The notes: generated from the sequence alone by a model not told the origin. Positions 5,730 through 56,123 are shown, counted from the first letter of the whole stretch. The stretch is 62,450 nt of DNA, filler included, from an uncultured Methanosarcinales archaeon (GCA_964593285.1; 3 parts of 3 records of this genome joined end to end with filler, not necessarily neighbours in it); one strand, 5' to 3'. A program made the numbers and translations.

Positions 5730-5801
5730 AAATAACTGGAAAATTAATTAATATATAAATTTTAATTTTTTATATAAAATATAAAGAAAAAAAGAAAAAA
5801 A

Positions 5802-7202: not shown

Positions 7203-7347
7203 TTAACCACACCTCATACTTCTATTTAAGATTTTCAATTTTATTATTTTTTAATAGTCAACTTCTATATAAACTTTTTGGTAGTTACTAAGTACTTTTA
7301 TGTAACTAAATAGTTAAAAAATATTAATTTTAGAATCTTTTAAAATG

Positions 7348-7488: not shown

Positions 7489-7490
7489 TT

Positions 7491-7772
7491 TTAAAGTTTA
7501 GCAAGTGTAATTTCAATTGTACTTACTCTAACTTGTTTCCCTTCTTTGTTTTCAAATTCTTCTGAATCTATTTTGATGTTGTCAATTTTGATTTGATCTT
7601 TTAGAAATCTTTTTAATGCAACTTCACTGATATCTACTGCACGTGAGATGAATTTTCCTCGTGCCTTAATTATAACTGATTCAGCGTTTTTTGTTGTAAA
7701 TTGCATAACTACGCTTGTTACATAGTTCATAAAAGGTTTATTTCCAACATAAATCATGTTATCTTTTGTCAT
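7491..7772 (-). CDS. albA: DNA/RNA-binding protein Alba
   Basis: YVGNKPFMNYV, KARGKFISRAVD, VSTIEITL. Confidence 0.97.
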   Translation of the reverse strand: MTKDNMIYVGNKPFMNYVTSVVMQFTTKNAESVIIKARGKFISRAVDISEVALKRFLKDQIKIDNIKIDSEEFENKEGKQVRVSTIEITLAKL

Positions 7773-7815
7773 TTTTTACATTCCTCCATTATTCTAAAAA
7801 TTTTTACAAAAAATA

Positions 7816-8010
7816 TCAAATTGCCTTTCTTTCCTTCATTAATCTTGTTAAATACCCACAAACAACATTAAGTATTTTTTTTGAAGGAATTATAGTTAAG
7901 TCTTTAATAATATTTTTATTTTCATAAAAGTCTTTAGTTAACTTTTCGTTGTGTTTATCATATATTTGAAAAGTTACTCTTTTTATCAGTTGTGTTTTAA
8001 TTCTTCCCAT
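7816..8010 (-). CDS. rps17e: 30S ribosomal protein S17e
   Basis: MGRIKT..IKR, DFYENK, SKK..N..GYLTR. Confidence 0.93.
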   Translation of the reverse strand: MGRIKTQLIKRVTFQIYDKHNEKLTKDFYENKNIIKDLTIIPSKKILNVVCGYLTRLMKERKAI

Positions 8011-8112
8011 TTTAATTCTTATTTAATTTTTTTACTTTTTTTGTGTTAATTATTCAGTGGAATTGTATTTCTTTTTTAAAATTTATGTTTTTATTTATAA
8101 ATAAATTAAATT

Positions 8113-9807
8113 TCAATGTGTAAACCAAAAAAATCGTTTATTATTTTCAATTTCATCTAATCTACAAAAACCAAATCTTTCAAACTGAATTATTGAATCT
8201 TTTGGTAAATCAATTAAATTATTTTCACAAATTCCAATAACTTTTCGTTTATCTGGCATTAAAATTTCACATTCGATAACTTTATCATTAAAACTCAGCC
8301 AATGAATAATTTTTTTATTTAAATTTGAATTTTTAAAAGATTCAAAATCATCTGAATGAAAATAATACTTTCCATTTTTTTTAACAAAATTAATACAATC
8401 CATCAATCTATATATACTATTTTCATCCATCTTAGCAATGTCTTTTTTTGAAACATAAAAATTTGAATCAATATTAAAAATTCTATCATGAACTTCTAAT
8501 TCAGGATGGGTTTTTAATTTAACTTCTTTGCTTTTAGTATTTATAATTTCAATTTTGATATAATCTTCAATAAAAAAATATCTTTTAGCACTTTTATCTA
8601 AAATTCTTTTATTGTGCATAATTAAATCATCCCATGTTAGTGTTGATTCAGATTTAGTAATACCAGTACTTATAACAAAATTTTTAATAGCATCTTTTGT
8701 AAATCCTCGTCTTCGCAGAGCAACAATTGTTGTAAGCGATGGATCGTCCCATCCAATTAATTCTTTCTTTAAAACTTTCTCTCTAATAATTCTGCCACTA
8801 GATAAAACACCTTTCATGTTAAATCTTGCAAATTCATAAGTTTTTGTAATTTTTAATCCAAGAATTTTTTGGATATAATTTTGTAATTCACCTCTCATTT
8901 CAAATTCTTTACTTCTAAGTCTAATGGTAACATTACTAATACTATCCATAATAGCATTTTGAAAATCATAATTTGGCCAAACTCTATATTTTTTATCAAT
9001 TCTTGGATGTTTTTTATCAATTACCCTAAAAATTGTAGGATCGCGCATTGTAGAATTTTTATGCAATAAATCAATTTTTAATCTTAAAACATATTCATTT
9101 TCTGGCATGCTATGAAATTTATTCCACAAATTTAAATTTGTATTAAAATCATTAGTTCTACATTTACAAGAAATTCCAGACATTCTATTATTTCTAATTG
9201 TTTCTAAATTACAATTACACATGTAAGCATTATTTGATTTAATTAAATTAATTGCATATTCATAAAATTTATCCATGTAATCAGATGCATATAGTAATTC
9301 ATCAAAATTAACATCAAGCCATTTAAAATTTTCAATCATAATATCATAAAACTTTTCTAAAACTAAATTAGGATTAGTGTCTTCAAACCTTAAAATAAAT
9401 TTACCATTATATTTTTTAGCTAGCAAATAATTTAATAATAATGCTTTTGCATGACCAATATGTGGATATTTTTCAGGTCCTGGTGGAAATGCGGTAATTA
9501 CTTCTTTTTCATTATCTAAATTTAAAAATGCAAAAATATCTCTATCTTTATCATTTTTTTTATCATTGATGATTTTAGTATCTAAATTTTCAAATTCTTT
9601 TTTTTGTTCATCTAGTGATTTAGAATTAATTTTTGTAATTATTTCATTAATTTCTTTTTTAACTAAGGCCATATCTTTTTTTATTTTTGGGTTTTGTGAA
9701 ATAATCTTACCAATTAATGCATTAGGATTTGCTTTGCCATTGAATTTTATAGCATTTTCTAAACCAAATAAATAAATTTCTTTTCTAACTTTTTCTAAAT
9801 TATCCAT
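8113..9807 (-). CDS. gltX: Glutamate--tRNA ligase (archaeal type)
   Basis: LENAIKFNGKAN N-domain, HIGH, LRFEDTNP, RDP..FR, GWDDP. Confidence 0.96.
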   Translation of the reverse strand: MDNLEKVRKEIYLFGLENAIKFNGKANPNALIGKIISQNPKIKKDMALVKKEINEIITKINSKSLDEQKKEFENLDTKIINDKKNDKDRDIFAFLNLDNEKEVITAFPPGPEKYPHIGHAKALLLNYLLAKKYNGKFILRFEDTNPNLVLEKFYDIMIENFKWLDVNFDELLYASDYMDKFYEYAINLIKSNNAYMCNCNLETIRNNRMSGISCKCRTNDFNTNLNLWNKFHSMPENEYVLRLKIDLLHKNSTMRDPTIFRVIDKKHPRIDKKYRVWPNYDFQNAIMDSISNVTIRLRSKEFEMRGELQNYIQKILGLKITKTYEFARFNMKGVLSSGRIIREKVLKKELIGWDDPSLTTIVALRRRGFTKDAIKNFVISTGITKSESTLTWDDLIMHNKRILDKSAKRYFFIEDYIKIEIINTKSKEVKLKTHPELEVHDRIFNIDSNFYVSKKDIAKMDENSIYRLMDCINFVKKNGKYYFHSDDFESFKNSNLNKKIIHWLSFNDKVIECEILMPDKRKVIGICENNLIDLPKDSIIQFERFGFCRLDEIENNKRFFWFTH

Positions 9808-10939: not shown

Positions 10940-11425
10940 TTATTTCTTTTTAAATTCTTCTTTAAGTATAATATAACTCATTATAATTATGCCTATTGTT
11001 ATAAAACTATCAGCAAAATTAAAAATAGGCCAAAAATTAAAATTTATAAAATCAACTACACCATTAAAAATAAATCTATCAATTAAATTTGACAATGCTC
11101 CTCCAAAAATTAATGATAAGGCTATTAAATATTTTTTTTCTATATTTTTAACATAATAAATCATAAAAAAAATAATTATTAATCCAAAAACTAATAATAA
11201 ATTATTATTTTCTGAAAATAAACTAAAAGCAGCTCCAGTATTGTAGACGTGTGTTAATGAAAAAAAATTATCTATTAAATATATGTGTTCATTTTCAACA
11301 ATTAATTTTCTAATGAAAAACTTAGATAATTGATCAATTATTAAAATAATAAAACCAATAATAAAAAAAGATAAATATTTTTTAAATATTTCATTATTAA
11401 TTATTTTAAATTTACATCTTTTCAT
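10940..11425 (-). CDS. lspA: Lipoprotein signal peptidase II
   Basis: DQLSK, NTGAAFS, GGALSNLIDR, VVDF and FNFAD; both catalytic Asp are present. Confidence 0.93.
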   Translation of the reverse strand: MKRCKFKIINNEIFKKYLSFFIIGFIILIIDQLSKFFIRKLIVENEHIYLIDNFFSLTHVYNTGAAFSLFSENNNLLLVFGLIIIFFMIYYVKNIEKKYLIALSLIFGGALSNLIDRFIFNGVVDFINFNFWPIFNFADSFITIGIIIMSYIILKEEFKKK

Positions 11426-12658: not shown

Positions 12659-12758
12659 NNNNNNNNNNNNNNNNNNNNNNNNNNNNNNNNNNNNNNNNNN
12701 NNNNNNNNNNNNNNNNNNNNNNNNNNNNNNNNNNNNNNNNNNNNNNNNNNNNNNNNNN
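12659..12758. other. Scaffold gap (100 N)
   Basis: Run of N. Confidence 1.
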
Positions 12759-12760
12759 TT

Positions 12761-14341
12761 TTATAATTTCCATATTTCTTTAAAAGAATGCTCATAATCG
12801 CAATACTTACAAGCAAAAGTATTGTTTTTGCTTTTAATAAATTCAAGTTGTACTTTTTCAAATTCATCTGAAGTTATACATTTTTCATTTTTGCAACAAG
12901 TATGTTCAAATCCATAAATAACAGGTGGCATTGATAATCTGTATTTTTCAATAACTTTATTATTTTTTACAATATTTAAAGTACATCCAGGGGATACTGC
13001 AGATAATCTTTTAATATCTTTTTCATTAAATTTAGAATAATTTGGAATTGCCATTAATCCCTTATATATTCCACTATTTTGATTTGACTCACCAACTCCC
13101 ATAAATCCAGGGTCATATATTTTTAATATATTATGCATTAATGATAAATGTTTCCATATATCTTTTGTATTTTCTCCTCTGCAAATATGGTCAATTACAA
13201 TTCCATTTGATATTGGTGTTATTCCTTCTTTTATTTCTTTTTTTATATAATTTTTAGGCTTAATTGGTAAAATAAAATCTTCAATATAATTTTTTTCTTT
13301 AATACTTTCACCTATAAAATCATTTCCAATTTTTCCTGCAATTGAACTAAGAAGAGCAATTCTCCAAAAGTATCCATTTTGTGATTGCACATCCCATCCA
13401 TTAAGTTTTGTTTCTTCAATAAAATCAGGAATGCTTGGGTTTTCCTTATTCATAGGTAAGGGGTGGTAAAATTTAGTATTTTTTGGAATTAAATTTAAAA
13501 ATTCTTTTTTAAATGTAACAGCTTCTTCAAATTCATTTTTTCTCTGTAAAATTGTATCTCCCATTCTTTCTAACTGTAGTCTTGTAAAATAATGTATTGG
13601 TGCAATATTTTTTTGATTATAATATTCTTTTAAATTTTCAAAAACATTAACTTCAAAGCCATTTTGTTTCATAATATTAACATAAGTTTTTGGCATTTGA
13701 ATAATTTTTGGTGCAATTAAATCAACCTTTACTTCATTAAATCTTTTAAGACCATTAGCTTTAGAGTGAACTGTTCTTCCATGTAGTAAATCACCAATTA
13801 ATGCAACATGAATATAATCTCTTTTTCCGTTCATATGTTCCATAAATGTAAATTCATCTAGTTCTTCTTGTGTTGGATGTTCATGTTCTCCATCTCCACC
13901 ATTTATGAATGCAGGTTTTAATATATTGTTTCTTTTTGAAAATTTTTTTAATTTATCTTCAAGATAAGTGCATAAACCTTCAGTTTTAGAACGGATGATA
14001 AAAATATTATTATCATAATTTACAAGTGTTTTTATAGTATCATAATAGCTTTCTTTTTTTTTTAATGAAGAACTTGCAATATCTAAATTATTAACTTTAC
14101 ATCTATGAAACTCTGATGCATTCCAAAAAGATTCTTTAGTTCTAGTGCTAGGTTCTAAAAAAAAATGATATATTCCAAAATCTAAATCATTTATTCTAAA
14201 TTTATCTAATGTTTTTTTATCTTTTGGATTTTTTAGATATGCTTCTTTTAATTCTTTAGTTTTTTTATATAAATATAATTGTTCATCAATTGATAAATCA
14301 CTTGTTTTAGAAATTGTTCTTGAAATAAATGGATTATTCAT
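12761..14341 (-). CDS. pyrBI: Fused aspartate carbamoyltransferase catalytic/regulatory chain
   Basis: FLEPSTRT, HPTQ, GDLLHGRTVHS, HPLP, then PyrI GIVIDHI and CKNEKC..CKYC zinc site. Confidence 0.93.
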   Translation of the reverse strand: MNNPFISRTISKTSDLSIDEQLYLYKKTKELKEAYLKNPKDKKTLDKFRINDLDFGIYHFFLEPSTRTKESFWNASEFHRCKVNNLDIASSSLKKKESYYDTIKTLVNYDNNIFIIRSKTEGLCTYLEDKLKKFSKRNNILKPAFINGGDGEHEHPTQEELDEFTFMEHMNGKRDYIHVALIGDLLHGRTVHSKANGLKRFNEVKVDLIAPKIIQMPKTYVNIMKQNGFEVNVFENLKEYYNQKNIAPIHYFTRLQLERMGDTILQRKNEFEEAVTFKKEFLNLIPKNTKFYHPLPMNKENPSIPDFIEETKLNGWDVQSQNGYFWRIALLSSIAGKIGNDFIGESIKEKNYIEDFILPIKPKNYIKKEIKEGITPISNGIVIDHICRGENTKDIWKHLSLMHNILKIYDPGFMGVGESNQNSGIYKGLMAIPNYSKFNEKDIKRLSAVSPGCTLNIVKNNKVIEKYRLSMPPVIYGFEHTCCKNEKCITSDEFEKVQLEFIKSKNNTFACKYCDYEHSFKEIWKL

Positions 14342-19679: not shown

Positions 19680-22022
19680 ATGTATTTATATAAAAAAAGT
19701 GTGTTTTTATTTTTTTTACTAATTTTTTCATTTTTATTAATTTCAAATGGTGTATTTGCAAAAAAAATATTTGATGATTATGTTGTAAATAATCAAGAAA
19801 TAAAAATTGAAAATTATACTTTTAGAGCACTTAGTGATGAAGATTTATTAATTTTAAATGATGTTAATTCTACTAAAAGAATTATTTTACCAATAGATGA
19901 TTCAGTAGTTTTTGATACATTTTTATTTCAAAATGAAGATTCTAAAACAATTTTTGATGATGATTTAAAAAAATATAATTTAAGTGGTATTAGAACAAAT
20001 CAAGATGATATTCATTTAAATAAATTACTAGTAACAAAAATTACAAATGCTTTAGAAATTTCTAGATCACTAAAACCAAAAGAGCCAGATTTTTTTAGTA
20101 AATTAAATGTAATTACAAAAATAAAAAATGTTGGAAATGAAGATTTAGTTGGAATAAAATTTATTGATGAAATACCAATTTTTTTAAAATTAAATAATTA
20201 TACTGATGTAAATTTAGATAGGCAATTATCAAATATTGCACAAAATAAAATAAATCATAAATTTAATTTAAAAGTTGATGAAGAAAAAACTTTAATTGCA
20301 AATTATAATATAATTGGGTATTCTACAAATAATTTAACATTACCTAGTTCAAAATTAATATATAATGCATTTGATTCAGATGTTGAGTTATTATCATCAG
20401 AAGAAAATTTAGTTTTAAAATATCCATTAGATATATCAATAAAAGAAAATATAAATAAGGTAAATTATAAAAAAAAATTTAATTTAACATTAGTTTTAGA
20501 AAATAAACATCTTAATAATAAAATTGATTTAGAAAATTTTCAAATAGTCTTACCAAAAGGTCTAAATTTAATTACTAATAATGATAATATAATAAAAATT
20601 TCAGAAAACATTTATCAAATAGAAGGCGTTATTGATAAACAAGAAAAAAAAGAAATTAAACTTTTATTTATCCCAAATTTAATAGGTTTAGAAAGTATTA
20701 AATTTATGGCATCTTATAAATTTAGAAATATTGATTTTAATGATGAATTAATTCAAGAATTTAAAGTACAATTTAATGACTTAACTTTTGATTTTGATTT
20801 AAAAAATCCAAAAACTTCAATTATTAGAGGAGGTGATTTAGTAAATTTAGATTTTTCAATTGAAAATAATGAAGATGTTGTAATTGAAAATTTATCAGTA
20901 GAAATTTTTTCTGATTTATTTAATAAAATTAATTATAAATTTTTAAAATTAAATTCAAAAACAAGTGTAAATAATAAAATAAATAAAGAAATACCAATTT
21001 TTATACCATCATTAGATAACGATGAGTTTTTCAATGTTACTTTTAAATTAAGTTTTGATATTGGTTCAAATGAATTTAAAGTTTATGAAAAAACAAAATC
21101 TTATGAAATATTAAAAGGTTTATCTGATGAAATGTTTAATGTACAATTAAATTTTATTAACACTTCTAATGATTTAGTGTTTGTAAATTTAACATTAATT
21201 AAATTAAATAATGATTTATTTGATGATTTATCAATATTTATTAATTCAACAAATAAAAATGAAAAAATTAATTTAAATGAAAATCAAAAAACAAATTTGT
21301 TTAATCCAAGTATGAAAGAATTTTTTATATATAGTTTTAAAAAAAATAATTTATCAAATATTGAGCCAATTAGTATTTTTTTAAATATTTCAAAAAATAA
21401 TGAAGAAATAAAAAAAGAATTTAAATTTTATTTAGATTTGTTGTCTTTTAATATTTTGGATAATAAAGATGAAATTATTTTAAGTCAAGAATTATTGTCA
21501 AATATAACAAACACAACAAATACTAGCGTTAATGAAACTTCAATTGATGCAAGTGAAAATTCAAGTAGTACTAATAGAAGTAAAGATATTTTTAAAGATG
21601 GACAAGAAATTGAAGATAAGAAAAAATTTGAACCAAAAATAAAATTATTTCATTTCATTTTATTTGCTATTATAATTTCTTTTATTATTGTTGGTGTTAG
21701 TTTAATAAAATTATTTAAAAAAGAAAATAGAGAAGAAGCTACAAATAAAAAGAAAAAATTTTCATTTAATTTTAAAAATTTGTTTTCTAAAAAAAAGAAA
21801 GGAAAAAAATATGAAGATCCAATAGATCTTGGGTTATATAATCAAGAAAATGTTTCTTCTACAAAAAGAGTTAGTTTAATTCCAGCACCAGGTTCAGGTA
21901 TAGAAAAACTTGAAAACTATATAAATGTTAATAAAAATTTTGGTAAAAGTAATGATGAAATTAGAAAAAATTTAAAATCTGAAGGTTGGCTTGATGAAGT
22001 TATTGATGTATTTTTAAAATGA
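19680..22022 (+). CDS. Large secreted, membrane-anchored surface protein (Ig-like/S-layer-like domains)
   Basis: Signal peptide, IKNVG..IDEIP (DUF11-like) segment, Ser/Thr linker, C-terminal TM and cytoplasmic tail. Confidence 0.65.
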   Translation: MYLYKKSVFLFFLLIFSFLLISNGVFAKKIFDDYVVNNQEIKIENYTFRALSDEDLLILNDVNSTKRIILPIDDSVVFDTFLFQNEDSKTIFDDDLKKYNLSGIRTNQDDIHLNKLLVTKITNALEISRSLKPKEPDFFSKLNVITKIKNVGNEDLVGIKFIDEIPIFLKLNNYTDVNLDRQLSNIAQNKINHKFNLKVDEEKTLIANYNIIGYSTNNLTLPSSKLIYNAFDSDVELLSSEENLVLKYPLDISIKENINKVNYKKKFNLTLVLENKHLNNKIDLENFQIVLPKGLNLITNNDNIIKISENIYQIEGVIDKQEKKEIKLLFIPNLIGLESIKFMASYKFRNIDFNDELIQEFKVQFNDLTFDFDLKNPKTSIIRGGDLVNLDFSIENNEDVVIENLSVEIFSDLFNKINYKFLKLNSKTSVNNKINKEIPIFIPSLDNDEFFNVTFKLSFDIGSNEFKVYEKTKSYEILKGLSDEMFNVQLNFINTSNDLVFVNLTLIKLNNDLFDDLSIFINSTNKNEKINLNENQKTNLFNPSMKEFFIYSFKKNNLSNIEPISIFLNISKNNEEIKKEFKFYLDLLSFNILDNKDEIILSQELLSNITNTTNTSVNETSIDASENSSSTNRSKDIFKDGQEIEDKKKFEPKIKLFHFILFAIIISFIIVGVSLIKLFKKENREEATNKKKKFSFNFKNLFSKKKKGKKYEDPIDLGLYNQENVSSTKRVSLIPAPGSGIEKLENYINVNKNFGKSNDEIRKNLKSEGWLDEVIDVFLK

Positions 22023-22459
22023 TTAAAAAAAAATCTCAAAGTTCAGTTGAATTAGTTATGGTAATTGGAATTACTCTTGGAGTTTTTTCTGTTACATTAT
22101 TAATAATTCAATCATATGCAGGTATTACAACAAATAATGCACTAATAAATCAAGCTAATAATATAGGTATGAATATGGTAGAAAATGCTGAACTAGTTAG
22201 AGCTTATGGATATCCTGCACGAATTGAAGTTGAATATAATTTTCCAGATAATATAAATGGAATGTTTGCTGTTAATAATTCATTATTTTTTAATACTTCA
22301 TTAAGTGGTTATAATTCATTAATGGAATTTTATTCAAATGCAAAAATGAATGTTTTATTAACTGAAGATGATTTTATAAAAGGTAAAAAATATATATTAT
22401 TTGAAGCAAACGAAACGCATAGAGATTATGTTAATATTAAAAGAATTTTTAAAAAATGA
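22019..22459 (+). CDS. Class III signal peptide (pilin-like) protein
   Basis: KKSQSSVEL followed by a hydrophobic helix. Confidence 0.75.
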   Translation: MIKKKSQSSVELVMVIGITLGVFSVTLLIIQSYAGITTNNALINQANNIGMNMVENAELVRAYGYPARIEVEYNFPDNINGMFAVNNSLFFNTSLSGYNSLMEFYSNAKMNVLLTEDDFIKGKKYILFEANETHRDYVNIKRIFKK

Positions 22460-22950
22460 TAAAAAATAAAGCACAAATTAGTTTAGAATATGTTACTATA
22501 ATTGCTTTTGTTTTTTTTATTAGTAGTACTTTTCTTTATATTTTTGGTGATAGGATTGTTTTTTCAAATAAAGATAATGTTATTACTACTGCTGATAATA
22601 TTGCAAATATGTTTGAAATTCAAGTTGAAATTGCAAACAGAGCATATAATGGTTATGAATCTGTATTTAAAATGCCTATTAGAACATCTCTTTATGAATA
22701 TAATTTTAATATTTTTGAAAATAATACTTTATTAATAACAATTAATGAATATGATCATGTAATTGGTCTTAGAAATAATACTATAAGTCATTTATCGCTA
22801 AATGATTCATTGGGTTATTATCCAATTGTGATTAGAAAAAATGATGGTTTAATCGAAATTAGTTCATGTATTAGTTGTACTGAATCATTGAAAAATTGTT
22901 TTAATGATGATACTTTAGAAGGTTGTAGTGGTTATGAATTAAATGATTAA
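22456..22950 (+). CDS. Class III signal peptide (pilin-like) protein
   Basis: KAQISLEY followed by a hydrophobic helix; Cys-rich C-terminus. Confidence 0.78.
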   Translation: MIKNKAQISLEYVTIIAFVFFISSTFLYIFGDRIVFSNKDNVITTADNIANMFEIQVEIANRAYNGYESVFKMPIRTSLYEYNFNIFENNTLLITINEYDHVIGLRNNTISHLSLNDSLGYYPIVIRKNDGLIEISSCISCTESLKNCFNDDTLEGCSGYELND

Positions 22951-23186: not shown

Positions 23187-23286
23187 NNNNNNNNNNNNNN
23201 NNNNNNNNNNNNNNNNNNNNNNNNNNNNNNTTAATTAATTAANNNNNNNNNNNNNNNNNNNNNNNNNNNNNNNNNNNNNNNNNNNN
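23187..23286. other. Artificial contig linker (44N-TTAATTAATTAA-44N)
   Basis: Six-frame stop linker, with an identical copy at 46014-46113. Confidence 0.97.
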
Positions 23287-26650: not shown

Positions 26651-28351
26651 TTAAATTTTTACTAATTCAAGTTCATAAGTTTTTTGCTTATCATCATCGC
26701 AAGCTTTAAGCATTAATGGTTTTTCATCATCAATTTGTGCTGCTATTACTTTTAATTGGGCTTTATGAATTCTATTTTGCTTTTCAAGTTTTATTTTTTC
26801 TTCATTTGCTTTTTTTGCTTCTATTTCTTTTAATTCTGTTTTGTGTAATTGTTTTTGATATTGATTTTTAAATCTTAAAACATCATCATCTTTTTGTTCT
26901 AACATTTTTTGTGCATTATTTAAATTAGCTAATGCACTGTTGTATTCTAATTGTAATTTTTTTACATCACTTTTCATGGTTTCAAGTTCACCTGCAGTTT
27001 TTACTGCACGCTCAAAAGGACCAACCATTCTTTGAATTTTTAAATCTTTTAAATTATTTTCTTCATTTAATAGATATGTTTTTTTTTCTAAATTTTCTCT
27101 TTTTGTTACTAATCTTTTTATTGAATTAATTGCTCGTTTATATAATGTAAATACTTTATTGCCTTTATTTTCTGCTTGTTCATATAAATTTTCTAAATGA
27201 TTAACTTTAAATTGTAAAGCTTTTGCATTTTCTCTACTTTGAGTTTTTGCTTTATGTGAAATTACAATTTTATTTTCTAAAGTTTCAATATATATTTGAT
27301 TTTGTTTATCTTTTTCTTCGATATCTTGTAATCTATTCATTTCTAATTTATAATTTTTATTAATTCTTTTTTCTTCTTTTAGTTCTTCATCTTTTGTTTT
27401 TAGAATATTTTCTAATTCATTTATTTTGTATGTTTTTTCTTCTGATACTAATTTTTCTTTAAATATCGCTTCATTTACATGATTTTTTGCAGATTCATTT
27501 AAATCACTTATGTAATCTAAAATTAGTGTAGGATTTGAACTTCTAATTGCTTCATCAATAAAACTTTTTGTATCTTCATCTATATAATTGAGAGAATCTT
27601 GTGCTCTAAGTTGTGCATTTGAAATATTTTTATCTTGATTGCTATATAGCATTTCCTCTAATTCTTGACGCTTGTTGATTTCATTATCTAATGATTTTTC
27701 GTGTTCTGATTTAATATCTTCTATTAGATTATAAAATCCATTTATTTCATTATTAATTAAATCAATTGATTTTTTTATATTTTGATTATTTCCTGTATAT
27801 TCAATTGAAATTAATTTATTAGAACTTGAATCTTGTTTTATTTTTATTGAATCTTCATTTAATAAATTTTCTAAATCACTTTTTGTTTCATCTAGTTTTG
27901 AACTTAATTCATCTTTTTCTATGTTAGCTTCTTCTAATTCATTATACAAAGTATCAAATTCATTTTTTATCCTATTGTGTGAAATTTTTAAATTTTCATA
28001 TTTATTTAGTTGTTCATTAACTTTATCTACTAATTCTAAATTTTGTTGTGTTTCATTATCTGTTAAAATAATTTTTTTATTACCTTCATCATATTTTAAA
28101 TCACTAATTTTTGGTTGTTTTAAATAATCAATATGTTCTCTTAATTGCTTAATATATTCTGGATTTGAATTATTATTTTTTCCATTTTTAAAGGAATTTC
28201 TTATAATATTGTCGACTGATCTATACATAATATCTGGAATTCCTGTAAAATCTTCAAATTCAGAAATTTTACTTTTTAAATTGTTAATAGACTTTTCGAT
28301 ATTTTTATTATGTACTTCAAATAGTTTATAAACATGTTCTTTAGTTGTCAT
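26651..28351 (-). CDS. Long coiled-coil hypothetical protein
   Basis: 566 aa of E/K/L/N-rich heptads; no Walker A seen. Confidence 0.7.
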   Translation of the reverse strand: MTTKEHVYKLFEVHNKNIEKSINNLKSKISEFEDFTGIPDIMYRSVDNIIRNSFKNGKNNNSNPEYIKQLREHIDYLKQPKISDLKYDEGNKKIILTDNETQQNLELVDKVNEQLNKYENLKISHNRIKNEFDTLYNELEEANIEKDELSSKLDETKSDLENLLNEDSIKIKQDSSSNKLISIEYTGNNQNIKKSIDLINNEINGFYNLIEDIKSEHEKSLDNEINKRQELEEMLYSNQDKNISNAQLRAQDSLNYIDEDTKSFIDEAIRSSNPTLILDYISDLNESAKNHVNEAIFKEKLVSEEKTYKINELENILKTKDEELKEEKRINKNYKLEMNRLQDIEEKDKQNQIYIETLENKIVISHKAKTQSRENAKALQFKVNHLENLYEQAENKGNKVFTLYKRAINSIKRLVTKRENLEKKTYLLNEENNLKDLKIQRMVGPFERAVKTAGELETMKSDVKKLQLEYNSALANLNNAQKMLEQKDDDVLRFKNQYQKQLHKTELKEIEAKKANEEKIKLEKQNRIHKAQLKVIAAQIDDEKPLMLKACDDDKQKTYELELVKI

Positions 28352-46013: not shown

Positions 46014-46113
46014 NNNNNNNNNNNNNNNNNNNNNNNNNNNNNNNNNNNNNNNNNNNNTTAATTAATTAANNNNNNNNNNNNNNNNNNNNNNNNNNNNNNN
46101 NNNNNNNNNNNNN
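46014..46113. other. Artificial contig linker (44N-TTAATTAATTAA-44N)
   Basis: Same structure as 23187-23286. Confidence 0.97.
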
Positions 46114-46199
46114 TTAAAATTAAAAAATTACTCATTTAAATTACATATTGTAAAAACTAACAAATAATATTTATAAATAATCAAAAAAAACAACTAATA

Positions 46200-47180
46200 A
46201 TGACATTAAAAATTGGTATTCCAAGAACATTATTATTTTTTTATTATTATCCTTTTTGTAAAACTTTTTTTGAATATTTAGAACTTGAAGTTGTTTTAAG
46301 TGATAAAACCAATAAAAAAATAGTAAATGATGGACTAAATAAAAGTGTTAATGATTTATGTCTTCCAATAAAAGTATTATATGGCCATATTGAAAATTTA
46401 AAAGAAAAAAAAGTTGATTATATTTTAATGCCATATATTTTAACAACTGATGGAAAATCATATTTATGTCCAAAATTAATAGGTTCGCCCGATATAATTA
46501 AAGCTACATTTGATGATATTAGTTTAATAACTCCAGATATTGATATGGGAAATCCTTATAGTTCTCTTTATTATTCATCAAAAGAATTAATAAAAATACT
46601 TGGATTAAAATCAATAAAATTATATCATGCATATAAAGAAGCAATAAAAACACAAACAAAATTTGATAAATTAATAGCTAAAGGATATTTATTTGAAGAA
46701 GCAATAAAAATATTATTTTTTAACAAAAAAATAAAACAAACAAAACATAAAAAAACAATAGCAATTGTTGCACATCCTTATATTTTACACGATGAATTTA
46801 TTAATGGAAAAATAATTGAAGAATTAAAAAATAACAAAATAAATATTGTAAATTCTGATATGCTAAGAGAAGAAGATATTGAAAAAAATTTAAAAATTAT
46901 TCCAAAAATTCCACATTGGAAACTAGGTAATAGAGTACTTGGATCGAGCATTTATTTTTCAAAAAAAAAAAATATAGATGGAATAATTTACTTAATGCCG
47001 TTTGGATGCTCTTCTGATTCAATAATAAAAGAATATATGCAAAATTTAATTAAAAAAAATAAACCATTTATGACAATTACATTAGATGAACATTCAGGTC
47101 ATAGCGGTGTAATTACTAGAATTGAAGCTTTTTTAGATATAATAAAAAATGAAAACAGCATGTTATCAAATTGGGAATAG
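46200..47180 (+). CDS. DUF2229 / acyl-CoA dehydratase activase-related Fe-S subunit
   Basis: KIGIPR.L..YYPF, CLPIK..GH, CPK, HPY, FGC, LDEHSG..G..TRIEAF. Confidence 0.88.
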   Translation: MTLKIGIPRTLLFFYYYPFCKTFFEYLELEVVLSDKTNKKIVNDGLNKSVNDLCLPIKVLYGHIENLKEKKVDYILMPYILTTDGKSYLCPKLIGSPDIIKATFDDISLITPDIDMGNPYSSLYYSSKELIKILGLKSIKLYHAYKEAIKTQTKFDKLIAKGYLFEEAIKILFFNKKIKQTKHKKTIAIVAHPYILHDEFINGKIIEELKNNKINIVNSDMLREEDIEKNLKIIPKIPHWKLGNRVLGSSIYFSKKKNIDGIIYLMPFGCSSDSIIKEYMQNLIKKNKPFMTITLDEHSGHSGVITRIEAFLDIIKNENSMLSNWE

Positions 47181-48213
47181 TAGTATTGCATCAAATGCAT
47201 TTATTAGAAGTTTAAATTTAAAACCAATTATAACACCAAAATTAAATAATGAAATGGTAAAACAAGGTTTAATATTATCTCCAGAATTTGCATGTTTTCC
47301 GTTTAAAACACTTCTTGGAAAATTAATTGAAGCATTAAAAAAAGGTGCAAAATTAATATTTATTCCAACGCCACAAAAAATATCTGCATGTCAATCTGCA
47401 GACTTTGGTTCAGCACAACAATTTATTTTAAAAAAATATGGGCACAAATTTAATATAATACCGATTAATAATTTAAATCCAAGAAATTTATTTAATGAAA
47501 TTAAAAAATACAATAAAAGTATAACATTCAAACAACTTACAAATGCCATTATTTTATTTACACAAAAATTATATTTACTAGAAGACATACAAGAAAAATA
47601 CAAACTAATATATTTATCTTACAATAAAAAAAAAGCAGAAAGTTTTCAGAAAAAATGGTTTTTAAAAATTGAAAAAACTGATAACTTCTTAAATTTAAGA
47701 AAAATAAAAATTAATTTTAACGATGAATTTAATAAATTAAAAATAAAAGAAATAAATAATTTTATAAAAATAGGCATAATTGGTGATGTATACTGTATTA
47801 ATGAAAAATATTTAAACAATAATTTATTTGAAAGATTATATAATAACAAAATTTATGCTGATAATGGTTGTAAATTAAGTATGTTTATAATACCAAATAA
47901 AATTAATAAATTAGATTATTTTTTAAATAAAAAAACTGAAAAATATCTAAACCATCCAATAGGTGGTTTTTCAAAGCATAGTATAAAACAAGCAATTTTA
48001 TATTCAGAAAAAAATTATGATGGAATAATTCATATATATCCTTTTGGTTGTATGCCAGAAACCGTTGTTAGAACAATACTGCCAAAATTAAGTAAAGATT
48101 ATAAAATACCCTTGCTTCATCTTCCAATAGATGAACAAACTGGAGATGCTGGTTTTAACACAAGAATTGAAGCATTTATTGATTTAATTGCATTAAAAAA
48201 AGGTGATTATTAA
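47149..48213 (+). CDS. 2-hydroxyacyl-CoA dehydratase/reductase-like Fe-S subunit
   Basis: PEFACFPFK..LG, IGIIGDVY, PFGCMPE, DEQTGDAGFNTRIEAF. Confidence 0.85.
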   Translation: MKTACYQIGNSSIASNAFIRSLNLKPIITPKLNNEMVKQGLILSPEFACFPFKTLLGKLIEALKKGAKLIFIPTPQKISACQSADFGSAQQFILKKYGHKFNIIPINNLNPRNLFNEIKKYNKSITFKQLTNAIILFTQKLYLLEDIQEKYKLIYLSYNKKKAESFQKKWFLKIEKTDNFLNLRKIKINFNDEFNKLKIKEINNFIKIGIIGDVYCINEKYLNNNLFERLYNNKIYADNGCKLSMFIIPNKINKLDYFLNKKTEKYLNHPIGGFSKHSIKQAILYSEKNYDGIIHIYPFGCMPETVVRTILPKLSKDYKIPLLHLPIDEQTGDAGFNTRIEAFIDLIALKKGDY

Positions 48214-49173
48214 ATGGATTATTTTTTAGGAATTGATGTAGGTTCAGTTAGTACAAATATTGTTGTTATAAATAATAAACTAAAAATTGAAAATGCATTA
48301 TATATTAGAACACATGGAGATCCTTTAACATCTGTTAAAAATGGATTAAAACAATTACAAGTAATTTTAAAAAAAGATTCAAAAATTAAAGGAGCAAGCG
48401 TTACTGGAAGTGCTAGATATTTAATTGGTGCAATGGTTAATGCAGATGTTATAAAAAATGAAATAACCTCCCATGCAATTGCTGCAATAACATATTATCC
48501 AAATACTAAAACAATAATTGAAATAGGTGGACAAGATTCAAAAATAATTTTAATTAAAAATAACATTGTATATGATTTTGCAATGAACAATGTTTGTGCT
48601 GCTGGAACTGGAAGTTTTTTAGATCAGCAAGCATCAAGACTTGGAATACCAATTGAAGAATTTGGAACAAAAGCTTTAAATTCAAAAGTTGATGTAAGTA
48701 TTGCTGGAAGATGTACTGTATTTGCAGAATCAGACATGATACATAAACAACAACTAGGCTACTCTATTAATGATATAATAAACGGACTTTGTAATGCTTT
48801 AATTAGAAATTATTTTAATACTGTTGGTAAAGGAAAAGAAATAAAACAAGATATTTTATTTCAAGGTGGGGTTGCTGCAAATATTGGAATTAAAAAAGCC
48901 TTTGAGAATTATTTAAAAAAAGAAATAATAATACCAAAACATTATAATGTTATGGGAGCTTTGGGTGCTTCTATTTTAGCTTTAAAAAATTATAAAAAAA
49001 CAAATAAAAAAACAAAATTTAAGGGTTTTAAAATAACTAATAAAAATTATAAAACAACTAGTTTTTTATGTAAATCATGTCCTAATTATTGTGAAGTTAT
49101 TCAATTTTTAGAAGACAATAAAAGAATAGCATATTTTGGAGATAGATGTCAAAAATATTCCAACTTAAAATAA
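48214..49173 (+). CDS. ASKHA-family CoA-substrate-specific enzyme activase (HgdC/BadF-like) with a C-terminal Cys cluster
   Basis: GIDVGSVST, EIGGQDSK, CAAGTGSFL, RCTVFAESD, GGVAAN, CxxCxxxC..GDRC. Confidence 0.95.
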   Translation: MDYFLGIDVGSVSTNIVVINNKLKIENALYIRTHGDPLTSVKNGLKQLQVILKKDSKIKGASVTGSARYLIGAMVNADVIKNEITSHAIAAITYYPNTKTIIEIGGQDSKIILIKNNIVYDFAMNNVCAAGTGSFLDQQASRLGIPIEEFGTKALNSKVDVSIAGRCTVFAESDMIHKQQLGYSINDIINGLCNALIRNYFNTVGKGKEIKQDILFQGGVAANIGIKKAFENYLKKEIIIPKHYNVMGALGASILALKNYKKTNKKTKFKGFKITNKNYKTTSFLCKSCPNYCEVIQFLEDNKRIAYFGDRCQKYSNLK

Positions 49174-49188
49174 AAAAGAGGATTTTAT

Positions 49189-50349
49189 ATGAATTTTTTT
49201 AAATATATATTAACAAAATTTTCAAAAATACAAAATAAATATGGTAATTACTTGTTAATTATTTTTTTTATTTTTACTTTATTTATGATTTTTGGATTAA
49301 CTAAGATAGAATTTGAAGGCGACTTTCAAAAAGAAATGCCACAAGATTTACCTATTTTTAAATTAAATGATAAAATAACTAATATTTTTAGTGGACAAGA
49401 TACAACATTTATTCTTATAATGTTAGATGATAATGTTCAAATTAAAAATACACCAAAAGATATAAGAGAACCTAAAATTATGAATTATGTAATTGATTTA
49501 GAAGAATCGTTATTGACTGAAAATAATATTAATGAAATAATTTCTATTTCACAAATGATAAAACCATTCAAAGAAAATAACCCCAATTATAATTTAGAAG
49601 AGATTTCAAATTATTTAAAAGAGATTCCACAAAGTTTCCAATTTATAAGCAAAGATTTTACAAAAACAATATTAATAATTAATACTAATGTTGGAAGTTC
49701 ACAAGAAAAGATTGCTGAATTAACAAATATTATTGAAAAACATATAACTGATTTATCAACACCTTCTGGAACAAAAATAAAAATTACAGGTAGTCCTTCA
49801 ATTTTAGCAATTATTTTAGATTTATTGAGAGCAGATTCAATTAAAACATTACTAATTGCATCAGTTATAATCATTTTTTTATTAGTACTAATACAGCGTT
49901 CATTTACACAATCTTTAGTAATATTCACACCAATATTACTTGGAATTATTTGGACACTTGGAACTTTAGGCTTACTTAATATAACAATATCTGTTGCAAC
50001 GGCAGGAATTGGTGCTATGATTTTAGGCCTTGGAGTTGAATATGGAATATTTATGATAACTAGATTTCAAGAAGAAAGAAAAAAAAATAAAACAATAGAT
50101 AACTCATTAAATGTTGCAGTTTCAACTGTTGGTTCTGCAATAATGGGATCTGGGTTAACTACAATGATTGGATTTTTAGCTTTAACTTTTTCATTGCTTC
50201 CATTATTACAAAAATTAGGTTTTAGTCTTGCTTTAGGTATATTTTATTGTATATTATCAACAATATTTATTTTACCTGTTTTGATAAAATCAGAGGAAAA
50301 ATATGTCCCTTTAATTATTAAAAAATTACATGATAGACGAATAAAATGA
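49189..50349 (+). CDS. Half-size RND/MMPL-family transporter subunit A
   Basis: One TM, large loop, five TMs; ITGSP, GLGVEYG..RFQEE, SGLTTMIGF. Confidence 0.88.
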   Translation: MNFFKYILTKFSKIQNKYGNYLLIIFFIFTLFMIFGLTKIEFEGDFQKEMPQDLPIFKLNDKITNIFSGQDTTFILIMLDDNVQIKNTPKDIREPKIMNYVIDLEESLLTENNINEIISISQMIKPFKENNPNYNLEEISNYLKEIPQSFQFISKDFTKTILIINTNVGSSQEKIAELTNIIEKHITDLSTPSGTKIKITGSPSILAIILDLLRADSIKTLLIASVIIIFLLVLIQRSFTQSLVIFTPILLGIIWTLGTLGLLNITISVATAGIGAMILGLGVEYGIFMITRFQEERKKNKTIDNSLNVAVSTVGSAIMGSGLTTMIGFLALTFSLLPLLQKLGFSLALGIFYCILSTIFILPVLIKSEEKYVPLIIKKLHDRRIK

Positions 50350-51509
50350 ATTTAATAAAAAAATTAATAAAATTATATGCAAAGTTTGCATCTAATAGAC
50401 CTTTTATTCTATTAATAATAGTTATTATAATTTCGATTCTTACATTTTTTTCATCAACTAATGTTGGAACAAAAACTATGGATAATGAAGATACACTCCC
50501 TGATGGTTTAGATGTAATAGAATCATTTAAGATAATTGAAGATTCATTTGGAAGAGGTGATTCGATATTAATTGCAATACAATTAGATCCAATAAATTTT
50601 AACTATACAAAAAATAGAGATATTAAACATATAAAAATTGTTGAATATACTTATACTTTAGCAAAATTAGTTGAAAATACAAATGATGTAATTTCAACTG
50701 AAAGTCTTGGAACATTATTAAAAAAATATAATAACAACGTTTTACCAAAATCACAAAAAGAAATAAATGATTTGATAAATAAACATGATTTTAGTTCTTA
50801 TCTAAATGATGATTTTAGTTTTACTTTAATTAGAATTCAAATTACGGATTCATATAATGCAGAAGAATTAGTTAAAGAAGTAGAAAACACTATTGATTAT
50901 CTAAATAGACCTGTTGATTTAAAAGTTGAAGTTGCAGGTGAAATTGCTTCATCTCCAATAATTGAAAAACAAATTGGACCTGACATGGGAAAAACATCAA
51001 GAATTGCAATATTTGGAATTTTAACAATACTTATTTTATTATTTTTTTCAATTAGATATGCACTAACACCAATATTTGTTATTGGTATTGGAGTTTTGTG
51101 GACTTTTGGCTTTTTTGGATTAATTCGTCTAAATATTAGTCCACAAACATCTGGTGCAATTTCAATGATAATTGGAATTGGAATAGATTTTGGAATACAA
51201 ACAATTTCAAGATTTAGAGAAGAATTAAAAAATAAAACTCCAAAAAAAGCAATGCAGATAACCCTTGAAAATGTATTTATGCCAATGACTACAACAACAA
51301 TTGCTGCATTAATTGGATTTAAGGCAATGTCGATGGGAGAATTAACATTTTTAGCTGAACTTGCAACAGTTATGTCATATGGAGTATTATTTTGCTTTTT
51401 TGCAGCTTTGAGTGTAATTCCACCAATTGCTGTAATTGGAGAAGAAATAAATATAAATATCAAAAAATATTTTAGTAATAAAAAATTAAAAAAAACGGTG
51501 AGAAAATGA
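50346..51509 (+). CDS. Half-size RND/MMPL-family transporter subunit B
   Basis: Same topology; GIGIDFG..RFREE, TTIAALIGF; ATGA overlaps on both sides. Confidence 0.88.
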   Translation: MNLIKKLIKLYAKFASNRPFILLIIVIIISILTFFSSTNVGTKTMDNEDTLPDGLDVIESFKIIEDSFGRGDSILIAIQLDPINFNYTKNRDIKHIKIVEYTYTLAKLVENTNDVISTESLGTLLKKYNNNVLPKSQKEINDLINKHDFSSYLNDDFSFTLIRIQITDSYNAEELVKEVENTIDYLNRPVDLKVEVAGEIASSPIIEKQIGPDMGKTSRIAIFGILTILILLFFSIRYALTPIFVIGIGVLWTFGFFGLIRLNISPQTSGAISMIIGIGIDFGIQTISRFREELKNKTPKKAMQITLENVFMPMTTTTIAALIGFKAMSMGELTFLAELATVMSYGVLFCFFAALSVIPPIAVIGEEININIKKYFSNKKLKKTVRK

Positions 51510-52741
51510 AAAAGATAATATTTTTAACAATAATTTTTTTATTAACAATTAACTTAGCACTTGCAGATTTTGATTTTACATCAATTAAATCAACATTATT
51601 AAATCAAGATCCAGACCCTGCAGAACCAGGAGAATATGTTGAATTAAGATGGAAAATTGAAAAAAGAGGCAATTTAGAAGTTGAAAATTTAACATTTGAA
51701 TTAGATATAAATTATCCTTTCTTTTTTGATAAAATTGATACATCTACCAAAAAACTTGGAGATTGGAAAGGATTTAGTGAAGATAAAGAATATTATACTT
51801 TATTTTATAAAATTAGAGTTGATGATAATGCAATTAAAGGAACATACCCTGTTAAATTAAAATATTCCTACAATGATAAAAAAGTTATTCATAAAGAAGA
51901 ATATGATATTAGAGTTAGTGACAGAGAATCATCAAAATTTGTCATTGGAAAAACTACTACTTCACCTAGAAAAATTTTAAATGATTTAGATGAAGTTGAA
52001 TTTGAAGTTGAATTAATAAATATTGGTGATGGTAGTGCAAATAATGTAAAAGCAGTTCTTAATTTAATTGATGGATTTACCCCATCGTATAATTATGCTA
52101 ATGAATTTATTGTTGGAAAATTAGAAAGTAATGAAAGAAAATCTGCATTATATTATTTAGATATAGATGAAAATGTAAAAAGTGATAACTATAAAACAAA
52201 TATTACCATTTTTTATAGTGAAGAAAATAATGAAAATAAAATAGAATATAAAAATACAACAATCCCATTTGAAATAATGATAATGAATAAACCCGAATTT
52301 GAAATAACTTCAATTGAAACTATACCAACACAAATAATTTCTGGAAAACAAACAACATTAAATCTAAATGTTAAAAATACAGGAAAAGATGCAGAATCTG
52401 TTTCTGTTAGAATATTTAAGGACTCATCACAACCTTTTGAATTTGATGAACGAACAGATTTTATTGGAAAATTAAACACAAATGAAGAAGGACAAGCGGT
52501 TTTACGATTTAATGTTGATGAAAATGCAGTTTCAAAAAAACATATTTTAACAATTGAAATTAGAAGCGTTGTTGGAAATGAAGTTTTTATTGAACAAAAA
52601 AGAATTCCAATTACATTAAATGAATTTAAAAGTGATAATAATTTAACAATGATAATTTTTGTAATAGTTTTATTAATAATATTTTTGTCACTTTCAGCAT
52701 TTGCAGGATATAATTCTGCAATTAAAAAAAATAAAAAATAG
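51506..52741 (+). CDS. COG1361-like S-layer/Ig-domain membrane-anchored protein
   Basis: Signal peptide, QDPDPAEPGEYVEL, three beta-sandwich repeats, C-terminal TM. Confidence 0.8.
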   Translation: MKKIIFLTIIFLLTINLALADFDFTSIKSTLLNQDPDPAEPGEYVELRWKIEKRGNLEVENLTFELDINYPFFFDKIDTSTKKLGDWKGFSEDKEYYTLFYKIRVDDNAIKGTYPVKLKYSYNDKKVIHKEEYDIRVSDRESSKFVIGKTTTSPRKILNDLDEVEFEVELINIGDGSANNVKAVLNLIDGFTPSYNYANEFIVGKLESNERKSALYYLDIDENVKSDNYKTNITIFYSEENNENKIEYKNTTIPFEIMIMNKPEFEITSIETIPTQIISGKQTTLNLNVKNTGKDAESVSVRIFKDSSQPFEFDERTDFIGKLNTNEEGQAVLRFNVDENAVSKKHILTIEIRSVVGNEVFIEQKRIPITLNEFKSDNNLTMIIFVIVLLIIFLSLSAFAGYNSAIKKNKK

Positions 52742-52892
52742 TTATTTTAAAAAAATTATATAATTTTTTTTCTTTTTTTTATAAAACTACAAATAAGATA
52801 ATTAAAATTAGATATAACCTAAAATTTGAATGTTTAAAGATATTTAAAAACAAATTTGATAGAATAATATTTATAAAAAATAATTAAAAAAT

Positions 52893-55149: not shown

Positions 55150-55356
55150 TTATATTACTTGCTTTACAATTAAAAGATGAAATACTTTATTTTTATGCAA
55201 TGGAGAATTAATAACTTTTTCATAAGCTTCTTCTTTAGAATTTGCTTCAACTTCTTCTACTAAAATAGCATCTTGTGTTTCTTCAAATTCACCATTTTTC
55301 ATTTTAAATTCTGTATAAGCAGATTTTCCTATTTCTAAAACTAAATATTCATTCAT
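55150..55356 (-). CDS. DpnD/PcfM-like small protein
   Basis: VEEVEANSKEEAYEKV motif; ATGA-coupled to dpnI. Confidence 0.55.
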   Translation of the reverse strand: MNEYLVLEIGKSAYTEFKMKNGEFEETQDAILVEEVEANSKEEAYEKVINSPLHKNKVFHLLIVKQVI

Positions 55357-56123
55357 TCTAACACCTCATATAATCCTCTTTCTTTAAATTTAATTATTTT
55401 ATTATCTCTTAAAATTTGTAATTGTTGTCTTATTTTTGCTTGGATATTCTTGTTTTCTGGATGAAGTTTTCTAAAATAATTTTCATATTTATAAATCTCA
55501 TTTAATTTAAATAATTTATTTTGCTCTTGCACTATTTTTAAAACATCAGAAGTCCATCCTCGAAAGTGGGGTTTTTTATTAGCGAGGAAAAACATTTTTT
55601 TCCAAATTTTATTTACTTTATCTTTATCTTCTATTTTTTCTTTATTAATTATTGAGATTTTTCCTTCATTTGGTAATTTATCTAATAAAAAATTACATCC
55701 TGTCCAACCTGCTCTCCTAGCATCTTGAGATAAAGGCTTTCGTTTCTCTAACATTGAAAAAGTAATAAAAAATTTAGGAATCATTATTAATGATTTTACA
55801 ATCCATTCATCAGAAGAATATTCTAATATAAAAAAATTAGGAGAATCATCTTTTTCAATAACTGAAACCATTGTGTTAAATTCTCCATCTACAATTTTTT
55901 TGCCAAAAGGTTTTTTAGAACTTTTTAACTGAAAATTATTATTACAATTTTTACAAAAAAAATCACTTGCTTTTTTATTATTAGGATAATTAATAATTTT
56001 TTTATTTAAGCAACAAGGACAATACATTTTTGAAGAAAACCAATTTTCTGTCATTACTCTTGCCCTTTGAGAATTACTTTTATAATTTTGAAAAATTTCT
56101 TTTCTATATAATAAAAGATTCAT
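55353..56123 (-). CDS. DpnI-family (Dam-replacing protein) methyl-directed endonuclease
   Basis: SQRARVMTE.W, CPCC, DFFCKNC, QLKS, RKPLS..ARRAGWTGC, winged helix HPEN..KIRQQLQILRD. Confidence 0.92.
   Translation of the reverse strand: MNLLLYRKEIFQNYKSNSQRARVMTENWFSSKMYCPCCLNKKIINYPNNKKASDFFCKNCNNNFQLKSSKKPFGKKIVDGEFNTMVSVIEKDDSPNFFILEYSSDEWIVKSLIMIPKFFITFSMLEKRKPLSQDARRAGWTGCNFLLDKLPNEGKISIINKEKIEDKDKVNKIWKKMFFLANKKPHFRGWTSDVLKIVQEQNKLFKLNEIYKYENYFRKLHPENKNIQAKIRQQLQILRDNKIIKFKERGLYEVLE

Follow-up and report, generated by a model that had tools for sequence, protein, structure and literature searches.

A split DUF2229 enzyme trio beside an RND transporter cassette in a DPANN-type archaeon: two units probably lying end to end without a conserved functional tie

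Introduction

How the membrane lipids of DPANN archaea are supplied and tailored is an open question, and a dedicated operon for transport plus remodelling would make it directly testable. Such an operon had been proposed for six consecutive genes, here called A to F, in the window that we analysed, a 62,450-nt stretch of a draft archaeal genome. This sequence-only reading took genes A-C for a split enzyme akin to the plasmalogen synthase PlsA and the glycerol ester reductase Ger, genes D-F for an RND/MMPL transporter with a surface protein, and the whole for a candidate system of lipid import and ester-to-ether remodelling. Do the enzyme and the transporter indeed belong together? Comparison across genomes indicates that the operon of the window is not such a conserved device. 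We consider it probable that two self-contained cassettes lie end to end in one lineage, likely as parts of a single transcript, and that no functional link between the two is conserved.

In PMC13159169, PMC12838417 and PMC9702350, Ger is described from T. maritima (Tmari_0479) and D. alkenivorans and PlsA/PlsR from C. perfringens (CPE1194/1195), with single-gene PlsA in Enterococcus, Lactococcus and Bifidobacterium. PMC13159169 further gives the architecture of Ger as two activase domains followed by DUF2229 and then small D/H domains, describes a 'BBD' core conserved in all alkyl-ether producers, and reports Ger homologues from Woesearchaeota and Pacearchaeota. PMC13274423 mentions additional homologues of PlsA without the activation domain and describes their role as unclear.

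Results

The two cassettes stand apart elsewhere

The 126 A-type loci that we fetched come from 80 species genomes, all bacterial by their titles, and 46 metagenome contigs, with flanks of at least 3 kb downstream at 78 loci and at least 3 kb upstream at 87. No RND gene was found at any of these other loci by phmmer with D, E and F or with a profile built from 66 RND halves, and none at eight further DUF2229 loci of the window's order, which cover three-gene, two-gene and fully fused forms. In the opposite direction, A, B or C was found at 0 of the 25 other D-E-F loci of the order (6 + 19; L135-L140 and L165-L183). Among 401 genomes sampled evenly across this order, A-type genes occur in 17 (four of which, G213, G332, G143 and G397, were counted only) and D orthologues in 23; besides the window genome only G073 and G196 hold both, on different contigs in each.

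The coupling of enzyme to transporter that had been proposed thus has no counterpart at these loci, and the caveat that came with it, namely that the enzyme block and the RND-COG1361 pair also occur alone, is borne out by 134 and 25 other loci, respectively. Uniqueness of the linkage to this genome had been named among the points that would speak against the proposal, and the linkage is indeed nearly unique to it, with one probable exception in an inferred close relative that is discussed below. Judged by these comparisons, A-B-C and D-E-F are each autonomous, and their juxtaposition is lineage-specific.

Layout of the six genes and their expression signals

The six genes are co-oriented, and both their coordinates and their tight junctions, with a largest gap of 15 nt, were described correctly by the sequence-only reading (Table 1). 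The setting of the operon is less straightforward. The window consists of contigs C17, C18 and C21 placed end to end, with N spacers around TTAATTAATTAA between them; spacers or gaps occupy positions 12659-12758, 23187-23286 and 46014-46113, one of which is a 100-N gap inside C17. The joins between contigs are artificial, so that gene neighbourhoods across the joints are not real, and the mannose-1-phosphate guanylyltransferase gene found before the last joint belongs to another contig and is not a genuine upstream neighbour of A. Gene A starts only 86 nt into C21, and true upstream DNA is limited to those 86 nt. Since the operon begins at a contig edge, "six genes" and "one TATA box" are minimum counts for the actual unit.

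Table 1. Genes, signals and contig joint of the six-gene locus (window coordinates)
Feature	Position	Strand	Description
Contig joint	46014..46113		N spacer with TTAATTAATTAA; first base of C21 is 46114
TATA-like motif	46170-46179	+	TTTATAAATA; 20 nt 5' of the ATG of A
A	46200-47180	+	DUF2229 subunit, 326 aa
B	47149-48213	+	DUF2229 protein paralogous to A but divergent, 354 aa; overlaps A by 32 nt
C	48214-49173	+	HgdC/BcrAD-type ASKHA activase, 319 aa; abuts B
Shine-Dalgarno-like GAGGA	49178..49182	+	Within the 15-nt gap between C and D; 6 nt 5' of the D start codon (ATG)
D	49189-50349	+	Half-size HAE3/MMPL RND permease, 386 aa; 15-nt gap after C
E	50346-51509	+	Second half-size HAE3/MMPL RND permease, 387 aa; 4-nt overlap with D
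F	51506-52741	+	CARDB/COG1361-type surface protein, 411 aa; 4-nt overlap with E
T-rich stretch	52764..52780	+	T8 C T8 after F; likely archaeal terminator

The single TATA box that had been proposed is present as a motif. Nevertheless, TTTAWAWA occurs 39 times on the plus strand of the 16,337-nt contig, where the local DNA is 78% A+T, and a motif so frequent in an A+T-rich contig is by itself weak evidence for a promoter. Genes C, D and F are preceded, 4-7 nt 5' of their start codons, by Shine-Dalgarno-like motifs (GGTGA or GAGGA); inspection of the sequence upstream of A revealed none. The motif within the C-D gap fits translation of D from a polycistronic message. Taken together, the signals are what one would expect if the first gene were leaderless and the others were internal to a single message. 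With only 15 nt between C and D, ribosome-binding motifs ahead of C, D and F, and a run of T residues behind F, co-transcription of A to F is therefore likely. A scan for sigma-70 promoters and intrinsic terminators gave fewer promoter-like sites than shuffled sequences, the models used being bacterial and uninformative for an archaeal host.

The source genome is a draft of 38 contigs and 1.18 Mb, 95.9% complete. Genes in the window encode archaeal L15e, L37ae, prefoldin and archaeal-type synthetases, the G+C content is 18-27%, and the closest named homologues of D are 'MMPL family transporter' proteins of Woesearchaeota and Nanobdellota. The gene content points to a DPANN-type archaeon as host.

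A and B are paralogous DUF2229 subunits

Protein A matches DUF2229 (PF09989) with 173 bits and protein B with 33.3 bits, against a Pfam cut-off of 29.4, and the two are paralogous at 27% identity. Since both match this family, A and B are paralogues, and not one Fe-S subunit plus one dehydratase subunit. The domain set given earlier is correct for A, for the activase C with its cysteine-rich end, for the two half-RND proteins and for the COG1361-like F, and is to be amended for B. Matches to HGD-D (PF06050) at the C-termini of A and B stay below the cut-off (24.2 and 27.4 bits vs 28.4) and span only the last 65-115 residues, whereas DUF2229 matches over the full length; no match to HGD-D above the cut-off across the whole subunit was found for either protein, despite the fold-level resemblance of A described next.

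The AlphaFold model of A (predicted local distance difference test score 89.7) matches in Foldseek the catalytic subunits of DCCP, HadBC, BzdNO and MbdON, with probability 1.0 and a TM-score of ~0.5, and the predicted fold of A is that of the catalytic subunits of the HAD/BCR/DCCP proteins. At the sequence level, a profile of A compared with the sequences of solved structures matches only over the last ~65 residues, to DCCP, with E ~1e-3. The DCCP equivalog NF040772 scores 16.9 bits with B, against a cut-off of 350, and does not match A. Invariant cysteines are C54, C90 and C270 in A and C49, C81 and C301 in B (97 aligned rows); the window subunits thus have three each, whereas DCCP has six. 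A hydropathy scan found no hydrophobic segment in A, B or C, as expected of soluble proteins.

The activase C carries a four-cysteine tail

Protein C contains a BcrAD_BadFG domain (151.8 bits) and exceeds the cut-off of the HgdC-type activator model TIGR00241 (178 vs 125.4 bits). Residues 1-264 can be aligned with three activators of solved structure, MbdQ, HadI and HgdC (E 1e-34 to 1e-38), all of which stop there. C128 and C167 are invariant in the alignment of C; we take them to be the equivalents of the cluster-ligand cysteines of HgdC. In C, 55 further residues follow that are absent from MbdQ, HadI and HgdC, with cysteines at 286, 289, 293 and 312 and a terminus that reads CKSCPNYC...GDRC. 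The tail cysteines are 99-100% conserved in 74 aligned rows, among which is the Act2-Red1 linker of three fully fused archaeal proteins, and in this way the four-cysteine tail connects the split and the fused forms.

In comparison with the HadBC/HadI, HgdC, BzdNO, MbdONPQ and DCCP systems, the fold is shared with A and the activator domain with C, whereas the sequence similarity of A is confined to its C-terminal end and C has the additional tail.

A-B-C as a split relative of PlsA and Ger

Fused Ger-like proteins of 1421-1489 aa, with two BcrAD_BadFG stretches and DUF2229, are encoded in 3 of the 27 genomes of the window's family (G013, G015 and G024). Protein A aligns end to end with Red1 of the fused archaeal proteins (313 residues, 27-29% identity, 59-81 bits), and C aligns with their second activase domain and linker, four-cysteine tail included (142-145 bits), whereas B barely matches their Red2. 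Among split proteins, A is 37-41% identical to those of Bacillota and 42-74% identical to the members of a clade of metagenome proteins.

In a quick maximum-likelihood tree of 84 Red1 modules, rooted on the B paralogues, A of the window falls inside a 23-row split-type clade (Shimodaira-Hasegawa-like approximate likelihood ratio test, SH-aLRT, 100), whereas all 28 fully fused forms make up a separate clade (SH-aLRT 99). The sister relation of these two clades is weak (SH-aLRT 83), and the split forms of Bacillota fall outside both. The validated Ger and PlsA sequences are not among the rows of this tree, in which long branches and uneven composition were flagged.

A-B-C and Ger/PlsA have in common the DUF2229 reductase module, the HgdC-type activase and the four-cysteine motif after the activase domain, and by analogy A-B-C is presumed to be oxygen-sensitive and ATP-driven as they are. 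In Ger/PlsA, however, two tandem activase domains are fused to the reductase in the order Act-Act-Red1-Red2, whereas the window has three genes in the order Red1-Red2-Act with a single activase domain as a separate protein, an A protein that lies outside the fused-form clade, and a B protein that, unlike theirs, is barely Red2-like. A-B-C is thus part of the DUF2229 branch within the HAD/BCR radical-enzyme superfamily, where PlsA and Ger also fall, and appears as a split relative of these enzymes rather than as a member of their group. The link to PlsA/Ger that had been drawn before is in this sense retained at the level of the branch, through the Red1 and Act2 alignments and the cysteine tail, and given up at the level of the fused clade.

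The closest counterparts are the split 'acyl-CoA dehydratase activase-related protein' trios of Bacillota and others, which are the additional PlsA homologues mentioned in PMC13274423, with the same three genes, the same order and the same cysteines. The neighbourhoods differ, the Bacillota trios lying next to spoVA and lysA and the window trio next to an RND cassette in a DPANN-type host. A-B-C belongs to this family of split DUF2229 trios. Fused and split forms occur together in Clostridium sp. Cult1 and Thermoanaerobacterium butyriciformans, and Caldanaerobacter has two split sets; the coexistence of fused and split forms in one genome fits paralogues with distinct roles.

Distribution of the trio

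The split A family is very large, with 2,664 clusters at 50% identity at E<=0.001 and 387 at E<=1e-30; the proteins of the best 150 clusters nearly all measure 300-380 aa, and some are A-B fusions. All three genes stand in A-B-C order at 75 of the 126 loci. In Bacillota, spoIIAA-spoIIAB-sigF, spoVA genes and a gene of the GerA family precede A, and a PALP enzyme and lysA follow C, the spoVA/PALP-lysA setting being seen at ~14-22 loci (L010-L088). In the clade closest to the window, which includes G268 of the window's order (49% identity), the neighbours are S6e, arginyl-tRNA synthetase and a DEAD helicase. No lipid gene recurs beside A-B-C at the loci compared, where the neighbours are housekeeping or sporulation genes (besides those named, HAD hydrolase, UvrB and AsnB).

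Within the window's order, DUF2229 genes come in four layouts: fully fused (1341-1489 aa), two-gene (a 660-aa double activase and a 782-aa double reductase), three-gene A-B-C, and a minimal pair. Examples of these layouts are L160 (G244, 3811-8132), L162 (G166), L163 (G150) and L157 (G268). The minimal pair (L144, G054, 1599-4901) consists of a 345-aa activase with the cysteine tail and a single 306-aa DUF2229 protein, and adjoins an IS200-type transposase and a LAGLIDADG homing endonuclase gene, which suggests that the enzyme genes can travel with mobile DNA. A very common and uncharacterised split DUF2229 trio is hereby recorded, patchily, in the window's archaeal order. The trio is new in this order; its parts are of known kinds.

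D-E-F is a conserved cassette of its own

D and E are paralogous (26% identity) and match the MMPL domain with 127.4 and 86.1 bits (cut-off 20.5). Against the full-length HAE3 model TIGR00921, each aligns with one half (241.9 and 179.1 bits) and, being half a transporter, scores below the cut-off of 351.9. According to a hydropathy scan, each has an N-terminal transmembrane helix, a loop of ~165 aa and a C-terminal transmembrane bundle, so that D and E together show the 12-helix, two-repeat topology of the HAE3/MMPL type. Protein F has a signal-like N-terminal helix, a C-terminal transmembrane anchor and a weak match to CARDB (25.3 bits), and its Atlas neighbours are archaeal 'COG1361 S-layer' and CARDB clusters. 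The MMPL domain of D and E is shared with the HAE3 (TIGR00921) and MMPL/HpnN-type lipid exporters, from which the window transporter differs in being made by two half-size genes that are always followed by a CARDB/COG1361 protein.

The D-E-F order is kept at 4 of the 6 and 18 of the 19 loci that make up the two sets from the order. Of the remaining three loci, two (G025 and L171) are cut at an end, and in the third (G018) E and F are fused in a single 819-aa frame. This fusion and the constant adjacency of the genes argue that F would work with the pump.

The gene directly upstream of D-E-F encodes a PadR regulator at 11 of the 25 loci, a MarR regulator at 2 (and weakly at 1 more) and a divergent TrmB-like protein at 2. 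Winged-helix regulators of this kind head stress-induced efflux pumps. Searching the window genome by tblastn with four PadR proteins of relatives (E<=0.01) gave no match, and the PadR gene may have been lost or may lie in unassembled DNA upstream of A. At one locus (L173, G308) a CMAS (cyclopropane-fatty-acyl-phospholipid-synthase-like) methyltransferase gene at 1754-2713 on the minus strand is divergent from D-E-F; it is the only lipid-related neighbour seen.

No characterised close homologue of D was found among its homologues or in the literature, and the titles and abstracts retrieved contain no description of a regulator-RND-RND-CARDB cassette or of DPANN RND transporters. This cassette represents a conserved and apparently undescribed unit, predicted to serve export at the surface of Woesearchaeota-like archaea.

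Lipid genes of the genome

Many DPANN archaea had been said to lack lipid synthesis, and in this genome, too, synthesis looks incomplete: it has no match for PcrB/GGGP synthase, for Fe-ADH_2 (the glycerol-1-phosphate dehydrogenase type), for HMG-CoA reductase or for a PlsC-type acyltransferase. Retained are one UbiA prenyltransferase, one polyprenyl synthase, a CarS-like gene beside a CDP-alcohol transferase, and a second CDP-alcohol transferase. In a genome that is 95.9% complete, this suggests that the early steps of lipid synthesis are missing and the late archaeal head-group steps kept, in agreement with lipid scavenging. The lipid genes found provide no ester-lipid pathway as a target for a Ger-like enzyme.

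Discussion

We favour, as the probable reading, two independent cassettes that came to lie end to end. The general electron-injection mechanism would be common to the HAD/BCR family and A-B-C. By what is generally known of that family, A-B-C would be a soluble, ATP-driven radical iron-sulfur enzyme. A dimer of C would hold a bridging [4Fe-4S] cluster on C128 and C167 and use ATP to transfer a low-potential electron to a heterodimer of A and B. In each of these two subunits, the three invariant cysteines would ligate a [4Fe-4S] cluster that leaves one iron open, and at this iron an ester or thioester substrate would have its carbonyl reduced to a ketyl radical. By analogy with Ger and PlsA, our leading guess for the substrate is the acyl ester of a glycerolipid. 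D-E-F, in turn, would be a proton-driven HAE3 RND exporter of two half-size permeases, with F as a membrane-anchored outer partner, which would expel hydrophobic or amphiphilic compounds. The winged-helix regulator gene found at the head of the cassettes of relatives has likely been lost from the window genome, where D-E-F would now rely on the promoter before A.

Several observations weigh against this separation of the two cassettes. The 15-nt gap with its ribosome-binding motif and the absence of a regulator gene before D mean that both cassettes are very probably co-expressed in the window genome, as the parts of a functional unit would be. In the nearest relative, the homologues of A (P0002, 74%) and of D (P0123, 77%) are each recorded on 2 contigs, the longest of which measures 12,014 nt for both; from this shared contig count and length we infer that they are co-located, and the juxtaposition has probably survived some divergence and been retained there. 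For a more distant relative (P0003, 62%), whose A lies on a 23,754-nt contig, none of the 120 D homologues listed is on a contig of that length, which is a weak hint against linkage. The CMAS-like neighbour in G308 hints that the pump can be linked to lipids, and the incomplete lipid pathway makes scavenging and remodelling of lipids plausible. Finally, the DNA 5' of A beyond the edge of C21 is absent from the assembly.

With these points in mind, a true functional tie between A-B-C and D-E-F is unlikely, and what probability it has lies mostly with export rather than import. One may speculate that the split enzyme displaced the regulator of D-E-F, and that the six genes now form a true unit that alters scavenged or self-made membrane lipids chemically, for instance by turning esters into ethers, and carries them through or out of the membrane. 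If true, a host-dependent archaeon would possess its own, specific lipid-handling device; we give this version a low probability. A newly formed export operon, in which a reduced, hydrophobic compound made by A-B-C (an ether lipid, for instance) is moved by D-E-F to the outer face or to F, is similarly doubtful. The likely co-expression, the presence of A-B-C in the place of the usual regulator gene, the arrangement probably kept in the 74-77% identical relative and the CMAS-like gene all speak for it. However, each cassette stands alone everywhere else that we compared, and there is no sign of co-evolution or co-occurrence, since only 2 of the 400 other genomes hold both, unlinked.

The import of host acyl-ester lipids by D-E-F, with reduction of their ester bonds to ether or vinyl-ether bonds by A-B-C in one system, is the form in which the idea was put forward, and we find it very improbable. 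It draws on the tight spacing and likely co-transcription, on the relationship of A-B-C to PlsA/Ger, on the incomplete lipid pathway, and on the Ger homologues reported from Woesearchaeota and Pacearchaeota in PMC13159169. Yet the linkage that it needs is absent at the 134 other A-B-C-type loci and the 25 other D-E-F loci, A, B and C have no membrane segment, and the retained UbiA and CarS genes belong to the archaeal ether-lipid pathway, with no PlsC found. RND, MMPL and HAE3 proteins are known as exporters, and in relatives the cassettes have a PadR or MarR regulator gene in front, the arrangement seen with efflux pumps; nothing here thus speaks for import. The window genome, where both cassettes meet, is nevertheless a convenient natural construct in which to test whether the split enzyme acts on lipids.

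A role of A-B-C in amino-acid fermentation, as a 2-hydroxyacyl-CoA dehydratase of the classical kind together with its activator, is just as improbable; this is the grouping that the sequence-only reading had named as one that would speak against its own proposal. The fold of A does match HadBC, C does match HadI and HgdC, and there are the weak HGD-D similarities at the C-termini of A and B. Against this grouping stand the sub-threshold scores and short extent of those similarities beside the full-length DUF2229 matches, the four-cysteine tail, which the fused Ger-like proteins have and HgdC, HadI and MbdQ lack, and Pfam scans of the neighbouring open reading frames (ORFs), which found no CoA-transferase or 2-hydroxyacid dehydrogenase.

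That the adjacency is an artefact of a chimeric contig is hardly credible, for although the genome is a 38-contig draft with the operon at a contig end, proteins identical to A and to D are on record from 3 and 2 contigs, respectively, with a longest contig of 18,430 nt for both, a D protein longer by one residue is recorded on an 8,998-nt contig, the A/D pair of the nearest relative shares its 12,014 nt, and the base composition is even across the C-D joint.

Other features of the window

Signal peptidase II (Peptidase_A8, 124.7 bits), a bacterial lipoprotein-processing enzyme, is encoded at 10940-11425 on the minus strand. Directly after an assembly gap, 12761-14341 on the minus strand encodes a 526-aa PyrB-PyrI fusion with the aspartate carbamoyltransferase catalytic domains and the PyrI regulatory chain domains. 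Two long ORFs lack a Pfam match, one of 780 aa followed by two overlapping small ORFs of 146 and 164 aa (19680-22950, plus strand) and one of 566 aa (26651-28351, minus strand). Downstream of the six genes, a methyl-directed restriction endonuclease of the DpnI type (218 bits) with a C-terminal helix-turn-helix domain is encoded at 55353-56123 on the minus strand.

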